64,000 bases of DNA from an uncultured Christensenella sp. GTDB taxonomy: Bacteria; Bacillota; Clostridia; Christensenellales; CAG-917. Under the pieces are notes generated by a model. That model saw only the letters and a program-made list of their open reading frames with translations. It was not told the DNA's origin and made no database searches. The position numbers and the translations under genes are program-made. Below are positions 8,525 through 41,546 of this stretch, one piece after another. Each line of letters opens with the position of its first letter. Position 1 is the stretch's first letter. Location of the stretch: the NCBI GenBank assembly GCA_910578325.1, contig CAJTQT010000001.1:4527-68526 (forward strand). The letters are read 5' to 3'.

Positions 8525-9967
8525 ATGAGTTTCGCAAGATTTTCAAGCGACTTTCTTATGGAAACTTTCACGCTCGTGGACAATCTTTTTATCAACGAGC
8601 ATCTCCCCTATTGCGACGAAAAGCAGATTAAGGTATATCTGTACGGGCTTTTTCTGTGTTCTAATCCCGCAAACGACAATTCGGTAGACGCTCTATGCGC
8701 GAAACTGGATATGACAGAATCGGCAATTCTTTCAACATACGGTTATTTCGAAGATATGGGGCTCGTCCGCATTATCTCGCAAAAACCGCTTGAAGTAAAA
8801 TATCTCAGTCTCAAAAAATCTATGCAGCCGCCAAAAAAATATAAAGGCGAAAAGTGGAACGATTTCAACGCGCATTTACAGCAACTTTTCCCCGAACGTA
8901 TGCTCACGCCCAACGAGTACAACGAGTTTTATATGTTCCTTGACGAGAGCAAAATGGAACAGGACGCTATGCTTATGATAGTGCAATACTGCATAGACCT
9001 CAAAGGTATGAACGTACGCTATCCGTATATTCTCACCGTAGCAAGGAACTGGGCTTCAGACGGAGTGCGCAATGCGTCCGACGTGGAAGATAAACTCAAA
9101 GAATACGACACACAGTCTGAACAGATGAGAACGGTGCTTGCGGCTTTGGGAAGAAAAGGAGCGGCGGAACTGGAAGACAAGCAGATGCTTCTAAAATGGA
9201 CTCGCGTATGGGGCTATGAACTCGACGCAATCCTCACCGCGATAAAGACGCTCAAAGGCGGCAAGAGTTTCAACAAACTCGACGCAAGGCTGGACGAGTT
9301 TTACAGAATGTCGATATTTACAGCCGCGGAAATGAACGACTATCGCGCGCACCACGAACACCTGAGGAATCTCGCGCTTTCCGTCAACAAAAACCTCGGC
9401 GTGTTTTACGAATCGTTCGACCACGAAATCGAAGTTTACATCGTACCGTGGACGGCAAAGGGTTTCTCTGACGACGCTCTTGTCAAAATTGCGCACCACT
9501 GTTTTATTACAAACGTACGCACTCTTGACGGAATGAACAACGTCGTAAACAAATTCTACGCGCAGGGACTTCTTACAAGCGAGAGCATCGACGAATATTT
9601 GCATACGCAAATCGTAACGGACGGAAAAATCAAGAAGATAATCGAGAAAAGCGGGCGCTCCCGCGCCGTCACTCAGTCCGACCGCGAATACTATCGTACC
9701 TGGACGGTTGTTTGGGGGTTTGACGATTCCGTTATCCTCTACGCCGCCGAGATGTCAGTAGGCAAAACCTACCCCACTCCGTACATAAATCAACTTTTGT
9801 CGGGGTATAAGTCAAAAGGCGTGACAACCGTAGAAGATGCGAAAAAGATTTCGCCTGTAATTCCCGAGCAAACCCGCAAAGCGAATTTCGAAGAACGCTC
9901 CTACACAAAGGAAGAATTACAGTCTATAGTCACAAGCATAGACAGTCTTAAAGACGCGAAGGTCTGA
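8525..9967 (+). CDS. DnaD-domain replication initiation / membrane attachment protein (Bacillus DnaB/DnaD-like helicase-loading partner)
   Basis: 480-aa ORF with repeated DnaD C-terminal-type segments (YILTVARNWASDGVRNASDVE; YINQLLSGYKSKGVTTVEDA). A DnaI-like loader follows immediately, with the stop 1 nt before the next ATG. Confidence 0.75.
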   Translation: MSFARFSSDFLMETFTLVDNLFINEHLPYCDEKQIKVYLYGLFLCSNPANDNSVDALCAKLDMTESAILSTYGYFEDMGLVRIISQKPLEVKYLSLKKSMQPPKKYKGEKWNDFNAHLQQLFPERMLTPNEYNEFYMFLDESKMEQDAMLMIVQYCIDLKGMNVRYPYILTVARNWASDGVRNASDVEDKLKEYDTQSEQMRTVLAALGRKGAAELEDKQMLLKWTRVWGYELDAILTAIKTLKGGKSFNKLDARLDEFYRMSIFTAAEMNDYRAHHEHLRNLALSVNKNLGVFYESFDHEIEVYIVPWTAKGFSDDALVKIAHHCFITNVRTLDGMNNVVNKFYAQGLLTSESIDEYLHTQIVTDGKIKKIIEKSGRSRAVTQSDREYYRTWTVVWGFDDSVILYAAEMSVGKTYPTPYINQLLSGYKSKGVTTVEDAKKISPVIPEQTRKANFEERSYTKEELQSIVTSIDSLKDAKV

Positions 9968-9968
9968 T

Positions 9969-10886
9969 ATGAAGAGAAGAGTAATGCAGGTTGTGCAGTC
10001 AAAACGGCTGGCAAGAATAAATACCCGCAAACGCGAAGTCGAACAACGTCTTACGCACGCTCTTTCTGTGCCCGAAATTTCAACCGCGCAGGAAAGATAT
10101 ATCAATATGCGTTTCGACGCGGCAAAAGGTGCCGACGAATCCGAGGTATCCGCCGCGCTTGAAAACTATCGCAACGCGCTTACAAAACACGGATACAGCG
10201 AATCCGACTTCGAATATACCCCCCTCTGCCCTATATGCGAAGACAAAGGAGTTGTCAACGGTAAACTTTGCAAATGTGTTTGGAAAGAATTTATACGTGC
10301 ATTGAAAGCGGAATGCGATATAGAACGCAAAGCGCCTTTTACTTTCGCCGATTGCGACCTCGATACGGTCAATAACGCAACTCAGCGCAACACGCTTGAA
10401 CAACTGTACGGATTTATGCAAAAGTATGCGGCGCAACTGCCTCTTGTACACAACCTGAACATTGTGCTGTCGGGAGGAGTCGGAAGCGGAAAAACCTGCC
10501 TTGCAAGCGCAGTAGCGCGCGCCGCGGCAGACAGAGGCAAAAGTTGCCTGTTTATGTCCGCGTACGAATTCAACGGCGCAATGCTTGCCTGTCATACTTC
10601 ACCCATATCCGAACGCAACGCACGTATGCACGATATCATAACAGCCGATTTACTCGTAATAGACGACCTCGGCACCGAACCGTTTTTGAAGAACGTCACC
10701 GAAGAATATCTGCTGCTCATACTCGAAGAAAGGCACAATGCACATTTGTGCACAATCATTACTACAAACCTAAACTCGGAGCAACTGCTCACAAGGTATC
10801 ACGAGCGCATATATTCACGTCTCAGCCACAAACGTAACTCGATGTTTTTCGTAATTGACGGCGACGATTTGCGGCACAACCTATAA
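9969..10886 (+). CDS. dnaI: Primosomal helicase loader DnaI/DnaC-type AAA+ ATPase
   Basis: Zinc-ribbon CPICEDKG..CKC. Walker A GGVGSGKT. Walker B DLLVIDDLGTE. IstB/DnaC-like C-terminus. Confidence 0.85.
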   Translation: MKRRVMQVVQSKRLARINTRKREVEQRLTHALSVPEISTAQERYINMRFDAAKGADESEVSAALENYRNALTKHGYSESDFEYTPLCPICEDKGVVNGKLCKCVWKEFIRALKAECDIERKAPFTFADCDLDTVNNATQRNTLEQLYGFMQKYAAQLPLVHNLNIVLSGGVGSGKTCLASAVARAAADRGKSCLFMSAYEFNGAMLACHTSPISERNARMHDIITADLLVIDDLGTEPFLKNVTEEYLLLILEERHNAHLCTIITTNLNSEQLLTRYHERIYSRLSHKRNSMFFVIDGDDLRHNL

Positions 10887-10901
10887 ACTAAATATAAATA
10901 T

Positions 10902-10932
10902 AAAAATCCACCGCGCTTAGGTGGATTTTTTA
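10902..10932. terminator. Bidirectional rho-independent terminator
   Basis: AAAAATCCACC-GCGCTTA-GGTGGATTTTTT between the convergent dnaI and ABC permease genes. Confidence 0.7.
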
Positions 10933-10955
10933 TAATTCTAAATTTTCTATAACCG

Positions 10956-11912
10956 CTATCTCTCTTCTCGGAAATACGAAGTTCCGAGAGCCGCAGGCGG
11001 TTGAGATTCCCTCTTGTTGACTATACTCGTTATTATAAGAACAATAATTGTAACTACATAGGGTATAAGTTTAACGAGTTCCTTCTGTGAGAATGAAACA
11101 TTCAGATAATTAGGCGCGATATACAATGCTCCAAACAGTATCGATCCCAAGATGCCCCAGTTCGGTTTCCAAACCGAGAAAATAACGAGCGCGACCGCCA
11201 TCCAGCCGTAAGTATCGACGCTATATTCTATGTTTCCGCCGAGATAGTCCATAATATAGAACAGTCCGCCGAGTCCGGCAAAAGCACTGCCCACTATAGT
11301 GGCTATATATCTGTATTTTGTGACGTTTATGCCCGCCGCATCTGCGGTTGCGGGATTTTCACCGACTGCTCTCAGATTAAGTCCCGTACGAGTCCTTTTT
11401 ATAACTACCGCCGCGATAACGGCAATTATGATAGCCAGATACACAAGCGTTCCGTAAGACAAAAACATCTGCCCGAACCATCCTGCATCCGCGGCACAAG
11501 GAAAACCATTAGTAAAATATGTGCTTGCTATACCGAAATTCGTCTTGTCTATACGGTTCATATAAAACCCTATAAAACCAATGCCAAACGTTGTTATGGT
11601 AAGTCCCGTTACGTTTTGATTACAACGCAGAGTAACTGTCATAAAACTGAACAGCAGTCCTGCAAGCGCGGCAAAAAGCATTGCAAAAATTATAGGAACA
11701 AATACCGCGGCAAAACCGTTAATGTTGCTTATATCAGCAAGAGATTTCAGATATAACGACTCGCCTATTACTCCGCCGACCGCGCCTATACACATTATTC
11801 CGGGAATACCGAGGTTGAGGTGTCCGGACTTTTCGGTTATTATTTCGCCGGTTGCACCGTAAAGAAATATAGTACTGAATCTTATAGATCTTTGTAAAAA
11901 CGTCCAGAACAT
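10956..11912 (-). CDS. BMP/nucleoside-type ABC transporter permease (NupQ/RnsD-like)
   Basis: 318-aa polytopic ORF and last gene of an SBP-ATPase-permease-permease operon. Its start shares nt 11912 with the upstream stop. Confidence 0.8.
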   Translation of the reverse strand: MFWTFLQRSIRFSTIFLYGATGEIITEKSGHLNLGIPGIMCIGAVGGVIGESLYLKSLADISNINGFAAVFVPIIFAMLFAALAGLLFSFMTVTLRCNQNVTGLTITTFGIGFIGFYMNRIDKTNFGIASTYFTNGFPCAADAGWFGQMFLSYGTLVYLAIIIAVIAAVVIKRTRTGLNLRAVGENPATADAAGINVTKYRYIATIVGSAFAGLGGLFYIMDYLGGNIEYSVDTYGWMAVALVIFSVWKPNWGILGSILFGALYIAPNYLNVSFSQKELVKLIPYVVTIIVLIITSIVNKRESQPPAALGTSYFREER

Positions 11913-13255
11913 TATTCCTGCACCTCCTTATCGGATACTTCTGCACAATCTGAATTTTGTATAGTCGCAGTTAAATCATCGGTTTGAGAAGTTGCCGGTA
12001 TCTGCAAACACTCATTCTCGACTGCTGCGACCGAATTGTCGGCTACTGTTTTCGTCTTTCTTTTTGTAAACAACCTGAATATCTTATTTTCTATATTAGC
12101 AAAAAACTCGGTGATGGAATTATCAAACTTTTCAAGTTTGCTCGGCTGAATTTCCTCTCCTTCTACATTCATTTTTCTACGCAACTTAATTCTATAACTT
12201 ATGAAAAATTCACTTGCAATAACTAAGAAGAAAAACACTGCCGTAATAATATTCGGAAACGAACCTCCGAATCCGAAAGTAGAGGCTGCCTGCATAGAAC
12301 CTTGACTCAAAAATGCAATCAGAAAAGAACTGATAACCATAGCAATCGGATTGAAATGCGCAAGCCAACTTATAAGTATCGCGGTAAATCCCCTTCCTGC
12401 GACAATCGACGTGCTTATAGTGTAACTGGTACCTCCCACAAGCAACCATCCTGCAATTCCGCACAGCGCGCCCGACAAAATCATAGTACGCACTATAACT
12501 TTTCTTACGTTTATTCCGATATACTTTGCCGTGTTGACTGATTCACCGACAACGCTGAGTTCATAGCCGTGTTTAGAAAAACGAAGATAAATATACATTA
12601 TGACAACAAGGACGGCCACAATGATTATATTCAGAATATATGGATACTGACCGAGGCGGGGAAATTGACCATAGCGTATTATGCCTACTACGCCAGAACC
12701 GCTTGGCACCCATACCGTAATGATAAACGCAATCAAGCCCATTGCTATATAGTTCATCATAAGCGTAAACAGCGTTTCATTTGTATTCCACTTCGCTTTA
12801 AAAATCGCGGGAATCGCGCCCCAAACAGCGCCGCCGGCTACGCTGGCAACAAGAGCCACTATTATTATAACAGGATCTGCCACGCTTCCGCCCATATAGC
12901 GCATACACGTTGCGCACATCAATGCGCCCATCAGAACCTGACCTTCCGCACCGATATTCCAAAACTTCATTTTGAACGCTGGCGTAACCGCAAGAGCAAT
13001 GCACAGGAGCATAGCGGTTTCCTGAAAAAGATTTACTATTCTTCTCGGAGTGCTGAAAGTCCCTTTAAACATTTCGTCAAAAAAAGTGCCGAAACTGTTC
13101 GGTTTAAGAATAGAACTGATAATGCCGCACAGCAATAATGATACAAGTACGGTAACAAGCCTTATAACCCATTTTTTCCATCTGGGAATATCAGTGCGCT
13201 TAACGATATGAAAAGGTGCTTCCGTTTTCAACTTTTTAAAAATATTCGTCACCAC
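11912..13255 (-). CDS. BMP/nucleoside-type ABC transporter permease (NupP/RnsC-like) with a hydrophilic C-terminal tail of about 90 aa
   Basis: 447-aa polytopic ORF. The tail RKMNVEGEEIQPSKLEKFDNS...SDKEVQE is non-membrane. Confidence 0.8.
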   Translation of the reverse strand: MVTNIFKKLKTEAPFHIVKRTDIPRWKKWVIRLVTVLVSLLLCGIISSILKPNSFGTFFDEMFKGTFSTPRRIVNLFQETAMLLCIALAVTPAFKMKFWNIGAEGQVLMGALMCATCMRYMGGSVADPVIIIVALVASVAGGAVWGAIPAIFKAKWNTNETLFTLMMNYIAMGLIAFIITVWVPSGSGVVGIIRYGQFPRLGQYPYILNIIIVAVLVVIMYIYLRFSKHGYELSVVGESVNTAKYIGINVRKVIVRTMILSGALCGIAGWLLVGGTSYTISTSIVAGRGFTAILISWLAHFNPIAMVISSFLIAFLSQGSMQAASTFGFGGSFPNIITAVFFFLVIASEFFISYRIKLRRKMNVEGEEIQPSKLEKFDNSITEFFANIENKIFRLFTKRKTKTVADNSVAAVENECLQIPATSQTDDLTATIQNSDCAEVSDKEVQE

Positions 13256-15016
13256 TCAGCCCTCCTCAATCATTGATTCAATAACATCTTCTGTCATTTT
13301 TGTATTATTTGTCATAAGCAGACCTATCTCATCTTTCTTTGCGCTTCTTCCGTCTACTATACCTGTGATCTTTCCTCCGCAGATAACCATTATGCGGTCG
13401 CAGAGATCAATTAAAACGTCGAGATCTTCTCCGACAAATATGACAGCCACGCCTTTTTCTTTCTGGTCATTTAAAAGGTTATAAATGGTGTAGGAAGAAT
13501 TTATATCCAGCCCTCTTACTGGATAAGCCGCCATAAGCACCGTCGGTGCAGCCGCGATTTCACGCCCCACAAGCACCTTCTGAACATTACCGCCCGACAG
13601 CCTGCGAACGGGAGTATGAGTACTCGGAGTTACTACCTCGAGATCATCGACTATTGTTTCGGCAAGCGTTTTAGGGCTCTTTCTGTCAAGGAACATCGTC
13701 TTGCCTTTGTTGTATGAGCGCAGCATCATATTGTCGATTAAATCCATATTACCGACAAGCCCCATTCCGAGTCTGTCTTCCGGAACAAACGAGAGACGCA
13801 CGCCCATATTTCTTATCTGAACGGGAGATTTGGAACGCAAATCCACCTTTTCATTTTCTTTCGTCGGATCGAAATACCAAATATCTCCCGCATTCAACTT
13901 CTGCAATCCCGCAATCGCTTCAAGCAGTTCGCGCTGACCGCTGCCCGCTATACCCGCAATTCCGAGAATTTCGCCCGAACGCGCCGTAAACGACACGTTA
14001 TCAAGCACCTTGACGCCGTCGTGACTTGTAGACGAAATATTCTCCACAATAAGCCTATCCTCAACGTCGTGCGGCTCGGTACGGTCTATATTGAGTTCAA
14101 TCTTCTTACCTACCATCATCTCGGTAAGTTCCTGTTCATTCGTTTCGGAAGTATTTACCGTTGCAATATGCTCGCCTTTTCTGAGAACCGCAACTCTGTC
14201 GGAAATTTCCATAACTTCGTTGAGTTTGTGCGTTATGATTATAATAGACTTTCCGTCCTCTCTCATACGTCGCAAAACCGCAAAGAGTTTTTTTATCTCC
14301 TGCGGCGTCAAAACAGCGGTAGGCTCATCGAGAATAAGAATATCTGCATTGCGATAAAGAACCTTTATAATTTCAACTGTCTGCTTCTCAGATACAGACA
14401 TATCGTATATTTTCTTTTTTAAATCGATTTCGAAACCGTATTTGTTTGCAATGCTTTGCAGTACTTGCGCACGGTTGCGTGCAAGCCAGCCGAATTGAAT
14501 ATGCTTTTTCAATTTTATGAAAGGCAACGCCGCAATTTTGCGTTTGGTTTCTTTTTCGGTATGGAATTTCGGAGCGGTCATATAAGACAAAATTCCCGTA
14601 TGTTCTTCGGGAACGTACGCTTCGAATTCTTCGTTTTCTTTTTTATGAGCGGCGCGGATAGCGGCTTCCTCTGTCTTTATATTGAAACCTTTAAACTCCT
14701 CGCCGAGTATGATATTATCAGCCGCGCTGAAAACGTCCACCAGTTTGAAATGCTGGTGTATCATTCCGATATGATGCGAAAACGCATCTTTTGGCGAACG
14801 TATTGACACCGCTTCGTCGTCGATAATTATTTCTCCCGCGTCGGGATAATAAATACCGGCAATCATATTCATAAGCGTAGTCTTGCCGCTTCCGTTTTCG
14901 CCCAAAATCGAAAGGACTTCGCCGCGATACACGGTCAAGTCCACGTTATTGTTGGCAATCACTTCTCCGAAAGTCTTCGTGATGCCTTTAAGTTGTATAG
15001 CAACATTATTTTCCAC
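13256..15016 (-). CDS. Duplicated-NBD ABC ATPase of nucleoside/sugar (CUT2) type (NupO/RnsA-like)
   Basis: Two ATP-binding cassettes. Walker A is GENGSGKTT in the first NBD and degenerate in the second (GIAGSGQ). Signature-like LSGGNVQK. It is larger than usual (586 aa) because of an insert in NBD1. Confidence 0.9.
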   Translation of the reverse strand: MENNVAIQLKGITKTFGEVIANNNVDLTVYRGEVLSILGENGSGKTTLMNMIAGIYYPDAGEIIIDDEAVSIRSPKDAFSHHIGMIHQHFKLVDVFSAADNIILGEEFKGFNIKTEEAAIRAAHKKENEEFEAYVPEEHTGILSYMTAPKFHTEKETKRKIAALPFIKLKKHIQFGWLARNRAQVLQSIANKYGFEIDLKKKIYDMSVSEKQTVEIIKVLYRNADILILDEPTAVLTPQEIKKLFAVLRRMREDGKSIIIITHKLNEVMEISDRVAVLRKGEHIATVNTSETNEQELTEMMVGKKIELNIDRTEPHDVEDRLIVENISSTSHDGVKVLDNVSFTARSGEILGIAGIAGSGQRELLEAIAGLQKLNAGDIWYFDPTKENEKVDLRSKSPVQIRNMGVRLSFVPEDRLGMGLVGNMDLIDNMMLRSYNKGKTMFLDRKSPKTLAETIVDDLEVVTPSTHTPVRRLSGGNVQKVLVGREIAAAPTVLMAAYPVRGLDINSSYTIYNLLNDQKEKGVAVIFVGEDLDVLIDLCDRIMVICGGKITGIVDGRSAKKDEIGLLMTNNTKMTEDVIESMIEEG

Positions 15017-36844: not shown

Positions 36845-37054
36845 ATGAACTTTTTTGCAAACGGTGGCTCAAACGGTTGTGGTTGTGGTTGCAATTGCTG
36901 CGACCTGATTCTTCTTATGCTCATACTCAACAGTTGCGGATGCGGCTGCGGATGCGGCAACACGGGATGCGGCGGCTGCACCAACAGTTGCGACCTCGTA
37001 TGGCTTATCCTCATTCTGTCCTGCGTATGCGGCAATAACTGCTGCTGCAAGTAA
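36845..37054 (+). CDS. Cys/Gly-rich hydrophobic mini-protein (69 aa, 17 Cys, two-fold internal repeat)
   Basis: GGAGG RBS 8 nt before the ATG. Sequence is MNFFANGGSNGCGCGCNCCDLILLMLILNSCGCGCGCGNTGCGGCTNSCDLVWLILILSCVCGNNCCCK. A strong hairpin follows directly after the stop. The antisense ORFs are nonsense. Confidence 0.6.
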   Translation: MNFFANGGSNGCGCGCNCCDLILLMLILNSCGCGCGCGNTGCGGCTNSCDLVWLILILSCVCGNNCCCK

Positions 37055-37178
37055 GGAATCCTTACACCCGCAAAATAGTTTTGCGGGCCCTTGCGGAACG
37101 CAGTACACCCCGACGGACGGGAGTGTAAACAAGAATGAAGTGCGTATGTTCGCCCTGCCGCGAACACGCGAGGGACGG

Positions 37179-37204
37179 AAAGCGGGAAGCGATTCCCGCT
37201 TTTC
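37179..37204 (+). terminator. Rho-independent terminator ending the Cys-rich gene transcript
   Basis: GAAAGCGGGAA-GCGA-TTCCCGCTTTTC, about 125 nt after the stop codon. Confidence 0.6.
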
Positions 37205-37273
37205 GCTTCGTCGCGCTACATTATATGCACTGAAAACCCGAAATGATATTCGCCGCATAATAATGCGAAGTAT

Positions 37274-37302
37274 TTGACTTTATAAGAGTTTTTATTTATT
37301 AT
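37274..37302 (+). promoter_or_regulatory. Candidate sigma-A promoter for glyQS
   Basis: TTGACT (37274-37279), a 17-nt spacer, then TATTAT (37297-37302). Confidence 0.5.
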
Positions 37303-37431
37303 CATAATTACAATAAGGTACGCATTCCGGCGTGCCGACATCGTCGCATTGAAACGGTTAGCGTCAAATAATTGCTATAAGGTAAATACAAGACGCGTCC
37401 GATTCAAACGCGCGAAGTGTGGAGGTATAAT

Positions 37432-38817
37432 ATGGCACAACTTACAATGGAAAAGATTGTCGCGCTTGCAAAAAACCGCGGCTTTGTCTATCCCGGCAGC
37501 GAAATTTACGGCGGACTGTCCAACTCGTGGGATTTCGGTCCTCTCGGCGTCGCGCTCAAAAACAACATCAAACAAGCCTGGTGGAAAAAATTCGTCGTCG
37601 AAAATCCTCACACAGTGGGTATCGACAGCGCGATTCTTATGAATCCGACTACCTGGCAGGCTTCCGGACATATCGGAGGATTCTCCGACCCGCTTATGGA
37701 CTGCAAAAGTTGTAAATCCCGTCACCGCGCAGACAACCTCATCGAAGACTATATGGCAAAGCACGGCATCGAGGGCAACATCGCAGGCTGGACCAACGAA
37801 CAAATGGAACAGTACATCGCAGAAAATAAAATTCCCTGCCCCGTATGCGGCAACAGCGATTTTACCGGCGTAAGAAAATTCAACCTTATGTTCAAGACCT
37901 TTATCGGCGTAACGGAGGACAGCACTTCAACCGTATATCTCCGTCCCGAAACCGCGCAGGGCATTTTCGTGAACTTCAAAAACGTTCAGCGCACTACGCG
38001 CAAAAAGATACCTTTCGGAATAGGTCAGATAGGAAAGAGTTTCCGCAACGAAATCACGCCCGGGAACTTCATCTTCCGTATAAGAGAATTCGAACAAATG
38101 GAAATGGAATTCTTCTGCAAACCCGACACCGATCTCGAATGGTTTGCATACTGGAAAAACTTCTGCCATCAGTGGTTGCTCGGTCTGGGTATGCGCGAAG
38201 AGAATCTCCGTCTGCGCGATCACGACGCGGAGGAACTCTGCTTCTATTCAAAAGCAACAACCGACTTCGAATATAAATTCCCCTTCGGATGGGGCGAACT
38301 GTGGGGCGTTGCCGACCGTACCGATTACGACCTTAATCAGCATATCAAGACGAGCGGCAAAGATTTGAGTTATGTAGACCCTGTCACAAACGAAAAATAC
38401 GTACCCTACGTTGTCGAGCCGTCGCTCGGCGCGGACCGTGCGTTCCTCGCGTTCCTCTGCGACGCATACGACGAAGAACAGGTCGGCGAAAACGATACGC
38501 GAGTCGTGCTTCACTTCCACCCCGCGCTCGCACCCGTCAAAGTTGCAGTACTTCCGCTTCAAAAGCAACTCAATGAAAAAGCGGAATCTCTGTACGTCGA
38601 ACTCTCCAAACACTTTGCCTGCGATTTCGACACGTCCGCGTCAATCGGCAAACGTTATCGCAGACAGGACGAGATAGGAACTCCGTACTGCGTAACGGTT
38701 GACTTCGAATCCCTCGAAGACGAGTGTGTAACCGTGCGCGAGCGCGACACGATGGCGCAAGTCCGCCTGCCTATCGAAGATTTGGTGAAATACTTCGAAG
38801 ACAAAATGGAATATTGA
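37432..38817 (+). CDS. glyQS: Glycine--tRNA ligase (single-chain alpha2 GlyQS type)
   Basis: [34 protein letters not shown], class II motifs ([11 protein letters not shown]) and an anticodon-binding C-terminus are present. I chose the ATG at 37432 behind GGAGG. The track starts at a GTG at 37417. Confidence 0.9.
38787..38817 (+). repeat. Direct repeat copy 1 (last 10 codons of glyQS, including the stop codon)
   Basis: GAAATACTTCGAAGACAAAATGGAATATTGA recurs at 40774-40804 with 30/31 identity. Confidence 0.85.
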
Positions 38818-38834
38818 ATACAAATTTGATTTAT

Positions 38835-38866
38835 AAAAGAAGCGCGCATTTTTGCGTGCTTCTTTT
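38835..38866 (+). terminator. Rho-independent terminator after glyQS
   Basis: AAAAGAAGCGCGCA-TTTT-TGCGTGCTTCTTTT. Confidence 0.75.
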
Positions 38867-38883
38867 ATAAATCAACAAAATTC

Positions 38884-39096
38884 TTAATTTAAAGTTATAC
38901 TTATTTTTGTATCAGGCTCATCAACCATATTCGAAATAATCAATTTATCCGAAATATCCCCCTTTTCAATATTTAATTGAATTACCTCAAGAACATAATG
39001 CTTTAAATCCATTAAATCATTTAAATACATTTTTTTTCTTAGTTTATCACTGTTCGTCTTATGAACCTTTTCAAAATTTTTTAAAACCTGCTTCAT
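38884..39096 (-). CDS. Hypothetical 70-aa protein (island gene)
   Basis: AT-rich ORF with a GAAGG RBS 6 nt upstream. Sequence begins MKQVLKNFEKVHKTNSDKLRKKMYLNDLMDLKHY. I recognise no family. Confidence 0.45.
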   Translation of the reverse strand: MKQVLKNFEKVHKTNSDKLRKKMYLNDLMDLKHYVLEVIQLNIEKGDISDKLIISNMVDEPDTKISITLN

Positions 39097-39128
39097 ATTA
39101 ACCTTCTTTTTATAAATTTTACATTAAA

Positions 39129-39272
39129 TCAATTTAAGTACTCTATTTCAATTGTTGCCTTAGAATTATCAGATAAAAAAATCAATATCTTGTTATTGTC
39201 ATAAATTATCTCATTTGAAACTTCTAGATTCATACCTGCTCTAATTAACTCCAAAATCAAAGGTATTCCCAT
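39129..39272 (-). CDS. Hypothetical 47-aa protein (island gene, below ORF-track cutoff)
   Basis: Hand translation gives MGIPLILELIRAGMNLEVSNEIIYDNNKILIFLSDNSKATIEIEYLN*. GAGGAGG lies 9 nt upstream. It sits 32 nt upstream of the 70-aa ORF on the same strand. Confidence 0.35.
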   Translation of the reverse strand: MGIPLILELIRAGMNLEVSNEIIYDNNKILIFLSDNSKATIEIEYLN

Positions 39273-39403
39273 AATGCATCACCTCCTCTATTGCTTATTC
39301 GTTCGAATTATATTGCATAGGCTCATTTTAACATCTCCTAAGACTGACACAAAGCATTTTTACTCATACTTTGCAATAAAATTTTAGCAGAAGGTGGCTT
39401 ATT

Positions 39404-39862
39404 ATGTCGAAACTTGTCTATAGGCTTAAAACACTTTTTGATAGTTATGATTTATCAACCGTAACTGGACAACAAGCGTTAGAAATCAGCAAAACACAAT
39501 TAGGTAGATACTTATCGGGATTTTATGTGCCGTCATTAAAAAACGCAATAAAGATTTGTGATTACTTTGACTGTTCACTGGATTACCTACTTGGTATAGA
39601 CGAAGAAAAAAATCGATTCGGAAATTTTGAAGAACCTAATTTTGAGATTTTTTCAAAAAGATTCCTACAAATTCTCAGCGAGCACAATTTAAGCATATAT
39701 CAGGTTGCGAAGAAATTAGAAATCAATAGAAACAATTGGACTTATTGGAATAAGAAAAAAACTTTACCGACTTTGGAAACAATTTATAAGTTGGCTAAAG
39801 AGTTCGAAGTATCTGCCGAATTCCTAATCGGTCGGACAAAAATTAAAAAAGGATCACTATGA
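39404..39862 (+). CDS. Dual-HTH XRE-family regulator, paralog 1
   Basis: Two Cro/C1-type HTH modules are present (..ISKTQLGRYLSG..AIKICDYFDCSLDYLLG and ..IYQVAKKLEINRNNWTYW..LAKEFEVSAEFLIGR). AAGGTGG RBS. Confidence 0.8.
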   Translation: MSKLVYRLKTLFDSYDLSTVTGQQALEISKTQLGRYLSGFYVPSLKNAIKICDYFDCSLDYLLGIDEEKNRFGNFEEPNFEIFSKRFLQILSEHNLSIYQVAKKLEINRNNWTYWNKKKTLPTLETIYKLAKEFEVSAEFLIGRTKIKKGSL

Positions 39863-40293
39863 ATTTCAATCTAAGATTAAAAGAACTTCTTGACGAACAA
39901 GAGATTTCTGCAAGAAAACTGTGCGAACAAATAGGTATCGACCATACGTCGATATATATGTATTTACAAGGCGGTTATCCAAATTTAGAAAACGCAGTTA
40001 AAATTGCGAACTATTTCGACTGTACGCTAAATTTCTTGTTCTGTATTGATGAACTTCCTAATCAATATAAGTTTTTCTATGAATATAATGCAGGCTTATT
40101 TTTCAAAAGATACACGGATTTATTACGACTAAACAAAATCTCTCATTACAAGGTCGGTAAGGAACTGAAATTAGGGAATTCTACATTTAAAAAATGGCAA
40201 AGTGGCTGCATCCCTAAAATCGAAACGCTGACAAAACTATCAAAATATTTTGGCTACTCTATTGATTACCTCGTTGGTCGTAGCGATACGTAA
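39859..40293 (+). CDS. Dual-HTH XRE-family regulator, paralog 2
   Basis: Same two-module layout as paralog 1 (..ARKLCEQIGIDHTSIYMYL..IANYFDCTLNFLF and ..HYKVGKELKLGNSTFKKW..LSKYFGYSIDYLVGRSD). ATGA start/stop overlap with paralog 1. Confidence 0.8.
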   Translation: MNFNLRLKELLDEQEISARKLCEQIGIDHTSIYMYLQGGYPNLENAVKIANYFDCTLNFLFCIDELPNQYKFFYEYNAGLFFKRYTDLLRLNKISHYKVGKELKLGNSTFKKWQSGCIPKIETLTKLSKYFGYSIDYLVGRSDT

Positions 40294-40305
40294 AGGATAA
40301 AACAT

Positions 40306-40749
40306 ATGACCGAATTTACAAGAATTTTAAAAGAATTATTAGATGAACAAAACACTACAATTCGTTCTTTAAGTCCGCAAATTGGTATTCCCTACCAGGA
40401 ACTGTACACATACGTTAATGATGATTATTTTCCGTCAATATATAACGCCGAAAAACTTGCGAACTATTTCGACTGTTCGTTTGATTATCTCTTCGGTCTT
40501 TCAGATACTTTTAAAACATCCGAATTTAAAGAAGTCGACATTTCTAAATTTTATCCGAGGTACTTAGAATTATTACAAGAAAACAAAATTAGCCACCACC
40601 ATTTATACAAAACATTAGGGTTGAGCAAATCAGGTCTGAGTAAATGGAGAAACGGTTCTGTTCCAAAGATTGAAAGCCTGTTAAAAATCGCCAAATTTTT
40701 TGGCACTCACATAGATTATTTAGTAGGACGTAGCGACATAAGGTATTAG
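40306..40749 (+). CDS. Dual-HTH XRE-family regulator, paralog 3
   Basis: Same layout (..LANYFDCSFDYLFG and ..IAKFFGTHIDYLVGRSD). AAGGA RBS. Lies 12 nt after paralog 2. Confidence 0.8.
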   Translation: MTEFTRILKELLDEQNTTIRSLSPQIGIPYQELYTYVNDDYFPSIYNAEKLANYFDCSFDYLFGLSDTFKTSEFKEVDISKFYPRYLELLQENKISHHHLYKTLGLSKSGLSKWRNGSVPKIESLLKIAKFFGTHIDYLVGRSDIRY

Positions 40750-40773
40750 CAAATCAAAACCCACAGTATCGGA

Positions 40774-40804
40774 GAAATACTTCGAAGACAAAATGAAATA
40801 TTGA
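40774..40804 (+). repeat. Direct repeat copy 2 (relic glyQS 3' end)
   Basis: GAAATACTTCGAAGACAAAATGAAATATTGA differs from copy 1 by one substitution. In the glyQS frame it would read KYFEDKMKY*. Confidence 0.85.
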
Positions 40805-40832
40805 TATATCATCATCTATATATTTATAATAT

Positions 40833-40865
40833 GAAGAAAACGCGCAGGACTGCGCGCTTCTTTTT
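40833..40865. terminator. Bidirectional terminator between the island/relic glyQS end and rex
   Basis: GAAGAAAACGCGCAGGACTGCGCGCTTCTTTTT has a GC-rich stem with A/T runs on both sides. Confidence 0.6.
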
Positions 40866-40898: not shown

Positions 40899-41546
40899 TT
40901 ATTCTCCGAGCGGCGGAGTTTTCAACTGCATACTCAAAAGCGCGAGCGACGCCGCCAAATCTTCGCCTTTGACCGCTATGCCTTCGGGCAATGTAAGATG
41001 TACAGGCGCAAAACACCATATCGCTTTAATGCCCGCGTCAACCATACTGTCGGCAACCGACTGAGCCGCAGCCGACGGCACGCAGATAATGCCGAGCCGT
41101 ATTTTGTATCTTTCCACAATGCCTTTAAGTTTATCCGTCGAATAAACGGGCTTTCCGTTGACCGAAGTATCTACCACTTTTTCGTCGGCGTCGAAAGCGC
41201 ATACGATATTCAAGCCGTAGTTACGAAATCCGTCATAGCCGAGGATTGCCCTTCCCAGTCCGCCTACACCTACAAGCACAGCGTCGCGCGTATTGTTATA
41301 GCCGAGGAAATCTTCGAGGTCGGCAATGAGTTCTTTTGTGACGAATCCCGTCTTAGGCTTGCCCGCCACCGAGGATACGAGCGCAATGTCTTTGCGCACC
41401 TGTACGGGATTGAGCCCAAGTCCGTTTGCTATCGTAGTGCTCGAAACGTTGGGAACGTTCTGTTTGTTGAGTTGATACAGATAGCGCAAATAGGACGGCA
41501 ACCGCCTCAGCGTTGCTTTTGACATTTCGCTGTTCTGTTCCTGCAT
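40899..41546 (-). CDS. rex: Redox-sensing transcriptional repressor Rex
   Basis: ATLRRLPSYLRYL winged-helix N-terminus and a Rossmann GVGGLGRAI motif. 215 aa. Confidence 0.9.
   Translation of the reverse strand: MQEQNSEMSKATLRRLPSYLRYLYQLNKQNVPNVSSTTIANGLGLNPVQVRKDIALVSSVAGKPKTGFVTKELIADLEDFLGYNNTRDAVLVGVGGLGRAILGYDGFRNYGLNIVCAFDADEKVVDTSVNGKPVYSTDKLKGIVERYKIRLGIICVPSAAAQSVADSMVDAGIKAIWCFAPVHLTLPEGIAVKGEDLAASLALLSMQLKTPPLGE

Follow-up and report, generated by a model that had tools for sequence, protein, structure and literature searches.

Why does the spacer between two core genes of an uncultured gut member of the Clostridia hold about 2 kb of DNA unlike everything around it, and how did this DNA get there? 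The locus in question lies in a stretch of 64,000 nucleotides from an uncultured Christensenella sp. (contig CAJTQT010000001.1, positions 4,527 to 68,526; the whole stretch is referred to as the window), in which the glycine-tRNA ligase gene glyQS and the redox-sensing repressor gene rex are 2082 bp apart and the intervening DNA holds five small genes, here called s70, s47, H1, H2 and H3. The best explanation of this block is that it is a horizontally acquired, foreign-looking, non-autonomous genomic islet, and the comparison with sister lineages shows that the glyQS-rex spacer is a clade-wide hotspot for small AT-rich islets encoding XRE-type regulators. As to the way of entry, a single-crossover (Campbell-type) insertion of a compact, att-flanked islet without a recombinase, similar to a cis-mobilizable element (CIME), is tentatively preferred, with a chance not quite even; the circle, the recombinase and the repressor function that it involves are inferred. 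The features of the locus are the following (coordinates in the window, strand, description).

37447..38817, plus strand: glyQS, glycine-tRNA ligase, the target gene (Pfam tRNA-synt_2b and HGTP_anticodon).
38784..38817, plus strand: left repeat copy, putative attL core; last 11 glyQS codons and the stop codon.
38826..38875, no strand: terminator 1, a bidirectional hairpin with a 23-bp stem, between the convergent glyQS and s70.
38884..39096, minus strand: s70, orphan open reading frame (ORF) of 70 amino acids (aa), with a Shine-Dalgarno sequence; predicted long helix and disordered tail.
39129..39272, minus strand: s47, orphan ORF of 47 aa that opens the leftward unit; strong Shine-Dalgarno sequence (AGGAGGTG); also called in L002.
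39273..39403, no strand: divergent promoter/operator region of 131 bp, between s47 and H1.
39404..39862, plus strand: H1, 152 aa, two XRE-type helix-turn-helix (HTH) domains.
39859..40293, plus strand: H2, paralogue of 144 aa, likewise with two XRE HTH domains; its first codon overlaps the stop codon of H1 (ATGA).
40306..40749, plus strand: H3, 147-aa paralogue with two XRE HTH domains.
40771..40804, plus strand: right repeat copy, putative attR core; non-coding, 21 nt past the H3 stop.
40833..40865, no strand: terminator 2, a weaker hairpin, between the right repeat copy and the rex stop.
40899..41546, minus strand: rex, redox-sensing repressor, the right-hand core flank (Put_DNA-bind_N and CoA_binding).

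The first-pass annotation of this DNA, made from the letters alone, had described a 31-bp direct repeat of the glyQS stop region with a single G-to-A change and a period of 1987 bp, and the description holds. The 31-mer GAAATACTTCGAAGACAAAATGGAATATTGA at 38787-38817 is the end of glyQS (..KYFEDKMEY*) and recurs at 40774-40804 with 30/31 identical positions, the only change being a G>A at position 23; the repeat extends further, to 34 bp, with 32/34 identical positions, and the longest exact word common to the two copies, as read from the sequence, measures 22 nt. No other match to the 31-mer with three or fewer mismatches exists in the window, none of 100 shuffles gave any, and the gapped local alignment of the copies scores 59, against a maximum of 28 in the shuffled null. 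The identity stops exactly at the TGA, and the 11-17 nt past it are not alignable between the copies. Direct repeats including the 3' end of the target gene are typical of CIMEs, and the two copies of the 34-bp repeat are regarded as putative att sites. A leftward extension of the repeat across an 8-nt gap was also considered and dropped, since by eye it was not significant.

Each copy is followed by a hairpin terminator, and the kinship of the two hairpins, already pointed out in the first reading, is borne out by the alignment of the post-repeat regions (score 31 vs a null of 14.4 +/- 2.3, with 0/2000 shuffles reaching 31). Terminator 1 (TATAAAAGAAGCGCGCATTTTTGCGTGCTTCTTTTATA) has a folding energy of -33.2 kcal/mol (z = -9.4); terminator 2 is presumed to be the native bidirectional terminator of glyQS and rex. 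The two are only about 72% identical, with indels, and such terminators, together with a sharp repeat edge and unalignable spacers, would be expected of a core site whose arms have diverged. A promoter-like site (TTGATA-18-TATAAT, 11/12) was also noticed at 40801-40830 on the plus strand; it starts within the right repeat copy and aims at terminator 2, antisense to rex, and may be due to chance in AT-rich DNA.

The composition changes at the same places. The 1,953 bp between the repeats (38818-40770) have a guanine + cytosine (GC) content of 31.0%, against 47.5 +/- 2.5% (minimum 40.7%) in all other segments of equal size, and form the sole block of about 31% GC in the 64 kb. The tetranucleotide distance of the islet is 0.58 vs 0.22 +/- 0.035 elsewhere (maximum 0.32), and the GC content at third codon positions ranges from 0.25 to 0.33 in its five ORFs vs 0.57-0.61 in glyQS, rex, panK and the radical S-adenosylmethionine (radical-SAM) maturase gene. 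The maximum-likelihood change points fall at 38771-38779 and at 40840, i.e., about 5-36 nt from the repeat copies. Windowed GC, third-position GC and tetranucleotide deviation thus agree with the AT-rich block first seen between the repeats, and its boundaries coincide with the repeat copies.

The structure does not depend on one assembly. The European Nucleotide Archive (ENA) and Logan assemblies (L001 and L002) are 100% identical over the whole islet, the right junction was found in two further samples (L003, 99.8% identity, and L004, 98.3%), with the right repeat copy unchanged in the latter strain, and a fifth record holds an H2 variant with one residue different. All strains known of this species, referred to below as species A, carry the islet.

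As stated in the first reading, no integrase, serine recombinase or transposase lies in the islet or beside it, and Pfam scans agree. No recombinase or transposase was found in the five islet ORFs, for which Pfam, NCBIfam, PHROGs and PADLOC give either XRE HTH domains or nothing, in keeping with the earlier view of them as regulator-like or unknown proteins, which the ORF list and the domain scans uphold; pseudogene fragments of integrase or structural genes were likewise not found in the islet with Pfam, PHROGs and PADLOC. A Pfam search of 30 other ORFs of the window returned no recombinase; they are housekeeping genes (dus, mazG, dnaB/dnaI-type, leuA, leuB, holA, mreB, minD-like, maf, ppx, ABC transporters and others), and recombinase domains are also missing among the called genes of 34.9-47.5 kb. 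An integrase of its own beside the att site, which would mark an autonomous element, was found neither in the islet nor in these 30 ORFs nor in the genes of that region. Outside the window, the repeat core gave 0 matches in viral contigs, whether exact or degenerate, and the islet DNA matched no phage or plasmid record (blastn).

In order to see what other genomes hold at this place, sister lineages were drawn from the 90%-identity GlyQS cluster. They have the order of the core genes in common, both on the left (homoserine dehydrogenase, PanK, TspO, a 69-aa Cys-rich ORF, glyQS) and on the right (rex, radical-SAM maturase, SCIFF). The DNA in between is given below for each species, together with the presence of a repeat of the glyQS tail.

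Species A (this window): 2082 bp with s70, s47 and H1-H3; tail repeat present.
Species B (L085): 1265 bp with s70' (46% aa identity) joined to H3' (58% aa identity) and about 470 nt of other sequence; no tail repeat.
Species D (L177-180): 466 bp without genes; no tail repeat.
Species E (L173-176, L093): two XRE proteins, of 108 and 78 aa, and a further protein of 158 aa; no tail repeat.
Species F: linkage to rex lost; 6.5-kb indel starting 20 nt past the glyQS stop; no tail repeat.
Species G, filled allele (L188): 1595 bp with a terminator of its own and genes for two proteins, one of 363 aa and one of 109 aa, the latter an XRE protein akin to that of species E; no tail repeat.
Species G, empty allele (L189): rex follows the glyQS stop after 138 nt that hold a single terminator; no tail repeat.

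Species A, B, D, E and G (the latter with both alleles) have the same flanks and different contents, and F varies directly after glyQS; therefore, the glyQS-rex spacer is a hotspot. In L085, s70' and H3' are the end genes and have the same orientation as in A, and H3' is devoid of about ten N-terminal codons; this content is an internal-deletion derivative, a degraded version of the s70 and H3 arrangement. Species D is the sister of B, with a synonymous divergence (dS) of 0.50 in glyQS. The two alleles of species G form a filled/empty pair within one species (L188 8387-9983 vs L189 8389-8429): their flanks are 99.2% identical, the islet of the filled allele stands in place of 41 nt of the empty one, beginning 2 nt past the glyQS stop, and the two alleles rejoin at the native terminator without any flanking repeat. 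The first terminator of L188 (TATAAAAGCGCGCAACATTGCGTGCTTTTATA) is homologous to terminator 1 of species A (score 34 vs a null of 15.1 +/- 2.5) and has the same G.T wobble; since the two islets carry different cargo, this homology suggests that they have a glyQS-proximal end module in common. The alignment of glyQS-rex junctions proposed in the first-pass annotation was thus answered in part: the contents of the relatives differ, an empty allele exists in another species (L189) and a gene-free spacer occurs also in L177, and the species of the window itself yielded no empty site.

In the wider scans, the best GlyQS relative among the matches listed from the collection of species-representative genomes is 77% identical, belongs to a Christensenellales metagenome-assembled genome and is not syntenic, and most matches of the metagenome scan with Rex belong to a group with 73% identity whose glyQS and rex genes are not neighbours. 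A candidate for a decayed tail copy in L085 (ACGGCGTA...AAATTG, at about 8510) was rejected, its similarity being not above chance. The indel of species F (L181 8407-14915 vs L183 8406) encodes a 373-aa protein, TrkH/TrkA, a histidine kinase and a response regulator, and units of a tandem repeat of about 160 nt stand at its borders.

How might the allele of species A have arisen? According to the single-crossover model, the islet would enter as a small circular or circularisable unit, carrying, beside its own bidirectional terminator, a sequence that mimics the final 31-34 bp of glyQS. A crossover between this mimic and the chromosomal glyQS tail, for which the most likely catalyst is a site-specific recombinase that has since been lost or has its gene elsewhere, would leave glyQS ending in the left repeat copy and followed by the islet-borne terminator 1, and would push the old tail copy, with the native terminator 2, to the rex side. 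The predicted attP junction reads ...CCCACAGTATCGGA, then the core GAAATACTTCGAAGACAAAATG(A/G)AATATTGA, then ATACAAATTTGATTTAT...; the predicted attB junction reads ...GAAGATTTGGT, then the core GAAATACTTCGAAGACAAAATG(G/A)AATATTGA, then TATATCATCATCTATAT..., so that the attB allele would encode ..KM(K/E)Y* and continue with TATATCATC.... Removing the islet in silico leaves the glyQS stop, 28 nt, terminator 2, 33 nt and the rex stop, and this predicted empty site matches the real empty allele of L189, with its single terminator. Once circularised, the unit would be self-contained, with two divergent transcription units, one control region and terminator 1 placed between the convergent H3 and s70. 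The model is favoured because the sharp edges of the repeat, the coincidence with the compositional boundaries, the tidy empty site and the circle with one terminator fit together. Since it is devoid of a recombinase, the present islet would be passive, moving only with outside help provided in trans or in cis.

The age of the different parts of the locus can be judged from the comparison of A and B. The core genes of the two species have a dS of 1.3-1.8, i.e., synonymous saturation, and the divergence of the island genes is no smaller. Between the glyQS tails of A and B, 10/33 positions differ, and between the two copies of the repeat within A 2/34; a non-coding copy as old as the A/B split would be unrecognisable, and on these divergences the duplication must be young relative to that split. 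It nevertheless predates the 1.7% divergence between strains; the right repeat copy is unchanged in L004. On the other hand, the compact layout, in which s70 borders glyQS and H3 borders rex, is old, because it is common to A and B, whose island genes are saturated. The first-pass annotation had left the choice between a decayed remnant and a cassette mobilised in trans; the end genes of A and B make the evidence lean towards a long-standing, compact unit without a recombinase rather than a freshly decayed element.

Judging from its domains, the cargo looks like a self-regulating switch of the repressor/immunity type, in which H1-H3 face s47 and s70 across the 131-bp region. Within this region lie a minus-strand site resembling a promoter and, as read from the sequence, an imperfect palindrome (TTATTCGTTCGAATTA) and TTGC(A/T) repeats. 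H1, H2 and H3 score 53.4, 55.4 and 67.4 bits, respectively, to Pfam HTH_3 (PF01381, cut-off 23), each with two matched stretches; their mutual identity is 30-47%, and H2 is 37-47% identical to H1 and H3. The cargo is read as repressor-like because the H proteins match phage and integrative and conjugative element (ICE) repressors and because a 31%-identical double-HTH protein is encoded in the lysogeny module of the C. difficile phage phiCDKH01, at the position expected for the repressor, where antirepressor genes are its neighbours and the integrase is about 2 kb away. Whether the module would give immunity to a phage or a helper, or would regulate host genes, is a matter of inference only.

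Several observations weigh against the single-crossover model. The glyQS-tail repeat was found neither downstream of 91 other glyQS genes nor in lineages B-G; the variable alleles of L085, L173, L188 and L181 are without a tail repeat, the pair L188/L189 included, and most turnover at glyQS-rex thus leaves no att footprint. No empty site was found in the assemblies of species A, and an exact look-up of a GlyQS ending in ..KMKY, the hypothetical product of the empty site, gave none on record. In the repeat, no convincing dyad symmetry of the tyrosine-recombinase core type was read from the sequence, except for the palindrome CTTCGAAG. The search for the 31-mer core and for islet homologues beside recombinases, suggested in the first reading, gave no integrase-bearing relative of the islet: such a relative, an attP-like copy and a second location of the islet were all missing from viral contigs, phage and plasmid records and the 91 glyQS loci of other genomes. 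An ICE or IME (integrative and mobilizable element) that would carry the helper recombinase was found neither in viral contigs nor in phage and plasmid records nor in the fetched loci, the rest of this genome and most metagenome data lying outside this search. Of the classic site-specific integration proposed at first, the repeat, the sharp boundaries, the islet-side terminator and the lack of a recombinase stand, whereas an integrase-bearing relative, an attP and an empty site in the same species were not found.

The filled and empty alleles without repeats in other species give weight to a serious rival, in itself somewhat unlikely, according to which no site-specific recombinase was ever involved. 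The alleles of the hotspot would be exchanged through homologous recombination within the core genes on either side. In species A, two crossovers, of which one was homologous and the other illegitimate (homology-facilitated illegitimate recombination), would have linked an allele bearing the islet with an empty one, or a circularised fragment would have entered by a RecA-type single crossover on the 34-bp tail; on either route the tail would be duplicated as a by-product. The replacement of 41 nt by 1595 nt in species G, 2 nt past the stop and with no repeat, the 6.5-kb indel of species F starting 20 nt past it, and the differences right past the stop, again without repeats, between B and D and in E speak for such exchanges; moreover, the right edge of the A repeat is the point where the alleles of other species diverge, and no recombinase was found in the ORFs checked. 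This scenario needs an illegitimate join just upstream of the end of the gene, or RecA acting on 34 bp only, and leaves unexplained both the circle-like, self-contained layout with one shared terminator and the homologous first terminators of islets with different cargo; nor does it account for a duplication that is the sole case among the roughly 100 glyQS loci examined. A recombinase would be at work again if the islet were the decayed remnant of a larger prophage, ICE or IME, integrated into the glyQS tail by its own integrase and reduced by internal deletions to the immunity/regulation part and both att sites. An origin of this kind is the one usually proposed for CIMEs (PMC5704250), the att-like repeat and the composition fit it, the double-HTH relative in phiCDKH01 lies near an integrase in a clostridial lysogeny module, and internal deletion does occur at this locus, where s70' is fused next to H3' in L085. 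We hold it to be distinctly unlikely, as the integrase usually stands at the edge of an element and both edges are taken by s70 and H3 in A and B alike, the layout is old and the repeat young, no debris of an integrase or of structural genes was detected by Pfam, PHROGs and PADLOC, and no larger relative was found in viral contigs or in phage and plasmid records.

Less probable still, and by a good measure, is that the genes form an old, vertically inherited and fast-evolving regulator locus, in which the repeat would have nothing to do with gene acquisition and would stem from a segment of about 100 bp, comprising glyQS tail, spacer and terminator, duplicated locally, and the low GC content would be typical of the genes themselves. 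Species B does have homologues of s70 and H3 in this spacer, the duplication extends to both tail and terminator, genes of this family have about 31-34% GC also in other hosts, and no known strain of species A is without the islet. Nevertheless, a non-coding copy of A/B age (dS > 1) would no longer be recognisable, and the copy is 94% identical next to an unalignable spacer; species D, though a sister of B, is without the genes, and a duplication exactly bracketing the compositional block would be a coincidence. That the repeat is an assembly artefact, i.e., a chimeric join or a collapsed repeat, can be given practically no credence: the contigs are indeed metagenome-assembled, and yet ENA and Logan agree, the right junction recurs in three further contigs from other runs, one of them 1.7% diverged, and 22 nt of exact shared sequence is under the usual assembly k-mers. 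A reading of the islet as an IS200/IS605-like insertion sequence (a palindrome-associated transposable element, PATE) was rejected, since only its left end has a hairpin. Going beyond the single-crossover model, one may imagine a family of mini-cassettes of about 1.5-2 kb, without a recombinase, with a common terminator end and interchangeable XRE cargo, which would be moved in trans through the glyQS-tail att by a helper or host recombinase and would act as portable repressor/immunity cassettes parasitising, and perhaps silencing, the helper; this broader proposal is quite improbable.

In Streptococcus thermophilus, the fda gene has insertions of a comparable kind at its 3' end, namely CIME19258 and CIME302. 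The islet resembles CIMEs in being flanked by direct repeats of the 3' end of a housekeeping gene, in having no integrase, excisionase or transfer genes and in its small AT-rich cargo. It differs from them in its much smaller size (2 kb), in its target, glyQS, in a cargo consisting of regulators only, and in that an ICE or IME related to it and using this target is not known and was not found in viral, phage and plasmid records or in the fetched loci; CIMEs are defined as elements that keep att sites and are devoid of integration and transfer genes, and derive from decayed ICEs and IMEs in Firmicutes (PMC5704250). With the immunity remnants of prophages and ICEs (cI/ImmR type) the islet shares repressor-like XRE genes divergent from small ORFs and the phiCDKH01 homologue, whereas its repressor-like gene is triplicated and neither integrase nor antirepressor nor structural debris accompanies it. 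Like the elements that exploit the host XerCD recombinases (IMEX, integrative mobile elements exploiting Xer, and pdif modules), it is bounded by repeats of about 30 bp and would depend on a recombinase encoded elsewhere; unlike them, its repeat is the coding end of glyQS and not a dif site. By eye, no dif-like XerC/XerD arms of the 11-6-11 type are present in the repeat, which is a weak test, and the cumulative GC skew is monotonic through the site and shows no terminus there. Finally, the locus behaves as other core-gene integration hotspots do, with the same flanks (PanK-TspO-Cys-rich ORF-glyQS and rex-radical-SAM-SCIFF), varied content and most alleles without mobility genes, the difference being the att-like duplication of the A allele, which exchange by flanking homology does not need.

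Att-flanked islets without a recombinase and core-gene hotspots are already known, and this islet, the glyQS target and the tripled double-HTH cargo are new instances of them. No report of glyQS as an att site was found in the literature searched, where the one paper naming glyQS, integrase and attB together is, to judge by its title, an unrelated CRISPRi screen in E. coli; if the insertion model is true, glyQS joins the essential genes whose 3' ends are used as attachment sites. The locus offers a very small and clean example of an att-flanked islet without a recombinase in uncultured gut Clostridia, in which filled, degraded, replaced and empty states can be compared across sister lineages. 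Current ideas are not overturned, and its value is that of an annotation example and of a lead to a possible helper element. It also draws attention to a little-known family of double-XRE-HTH regulators with a tendency to tandem arrays.

An exhaustive profile search for this family gave 255 cluster representatives at E <= 1e-30; many of them are stand-alone proteins of about 145 aa, and many others have 2-12 matched stretches, so that tandem amplification is a trait of the family. In the alignment of 21 members, a design of two modules is conserved (..ANYFDCSLDYLFGL.. and ..IAxxFxxSIDYLVGR). H3 was modelled with confidence by AlphaFold2 as two five-helix domains (predicted local distance difference test score, pLDDT, 94.8), and solved structures (P22 c2, ImmR, SinR and the repressors of arbitrium phages) cover one H domain at a time. 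The profile gave only two weak single-HTH matches in viral contigs, and the H3 protein has one distant match in plasmids and two in phages, at about 31% identity; on these searches the family is almost absent from phage and plasmid records. Neither s47 nor s70 matches any family of Pfam, NCBIfam or PHROGs; PADLOC gives s70 one marginal match (E = 0.0095). A search of 5.8 billion proteins with s70 returned itself only; the sole relative of s70 is the ORF that takes its place in L085, and its structure model, a single long helix, is uninformative.

Some observations on the family stand apart from the history of the islet. The double-HTH module occurs in many proteins of 260-440 aa with 2-4 matched stretches, arrays and fusions being common, and in predicted proteins of 700-3700 aa with 5-12 stretches (P0040-P0044, P0065), which may be real or may be fusions due to gene calling. 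The H2 variant mentioned above (P0039, from another assembly) has the single change P119L; this residue aligns with P120 of H3 and is Pro in 21/21 aligned members, P43 being the other invariant Pro, and the change may hint at a relaxed constraint on H2. The contig of the second-closest H3 relative (L191) shows an unrelated AT-rich context. At another H-family locus, whose genes are HTH68, P0003 and a 206-aa ORF, L086 and L088 harbor at 9673-12680 an element with an integrase and a MobL relaxase, which is absent from L087.

As for the neighbouring genes, the glyQS product has 456 aa as called in public assemblies, where the exact product is on record, and 466 aa would also be possible from an alternative upstream GTG start at 37417. 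The glyQS gene of Bacillus has a well-known T-box leader. In the leader of this glyQS (37055-37416, about 360 nt), neither a T-box nor any other Rfam family was found, even at E <= 1; at the gathering score Rfam has no matches in the window or in L085, and at E <= 1 it gives only chance hairpin matches. The scan of the window gave no tRNA genes. A palindromic hairpin of about 130 nt, similar to miniature inverted-repeat transposable elements (MITEs) or to repetitive extragenic palindromic (REP) sequences, overlaps the 3' end of rex in L085 (8880-9013), L093 (about 875-994) and L177 (about 8755-8890) and recurs at another locus in L095-L102 (about 13547-13640); the window does not contain it. 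Directly upstream of glyQS, at 36845-37054 on the plus strand, lies the 69-aa ORF of the left flank, which has an extreme Cys/Gly content (CGCGCGC motifs and two hydrophobic stretches), is also called at that position in L085, L174 and L177, and has the SCIFF-type radical-SAM maturase within a few kb.

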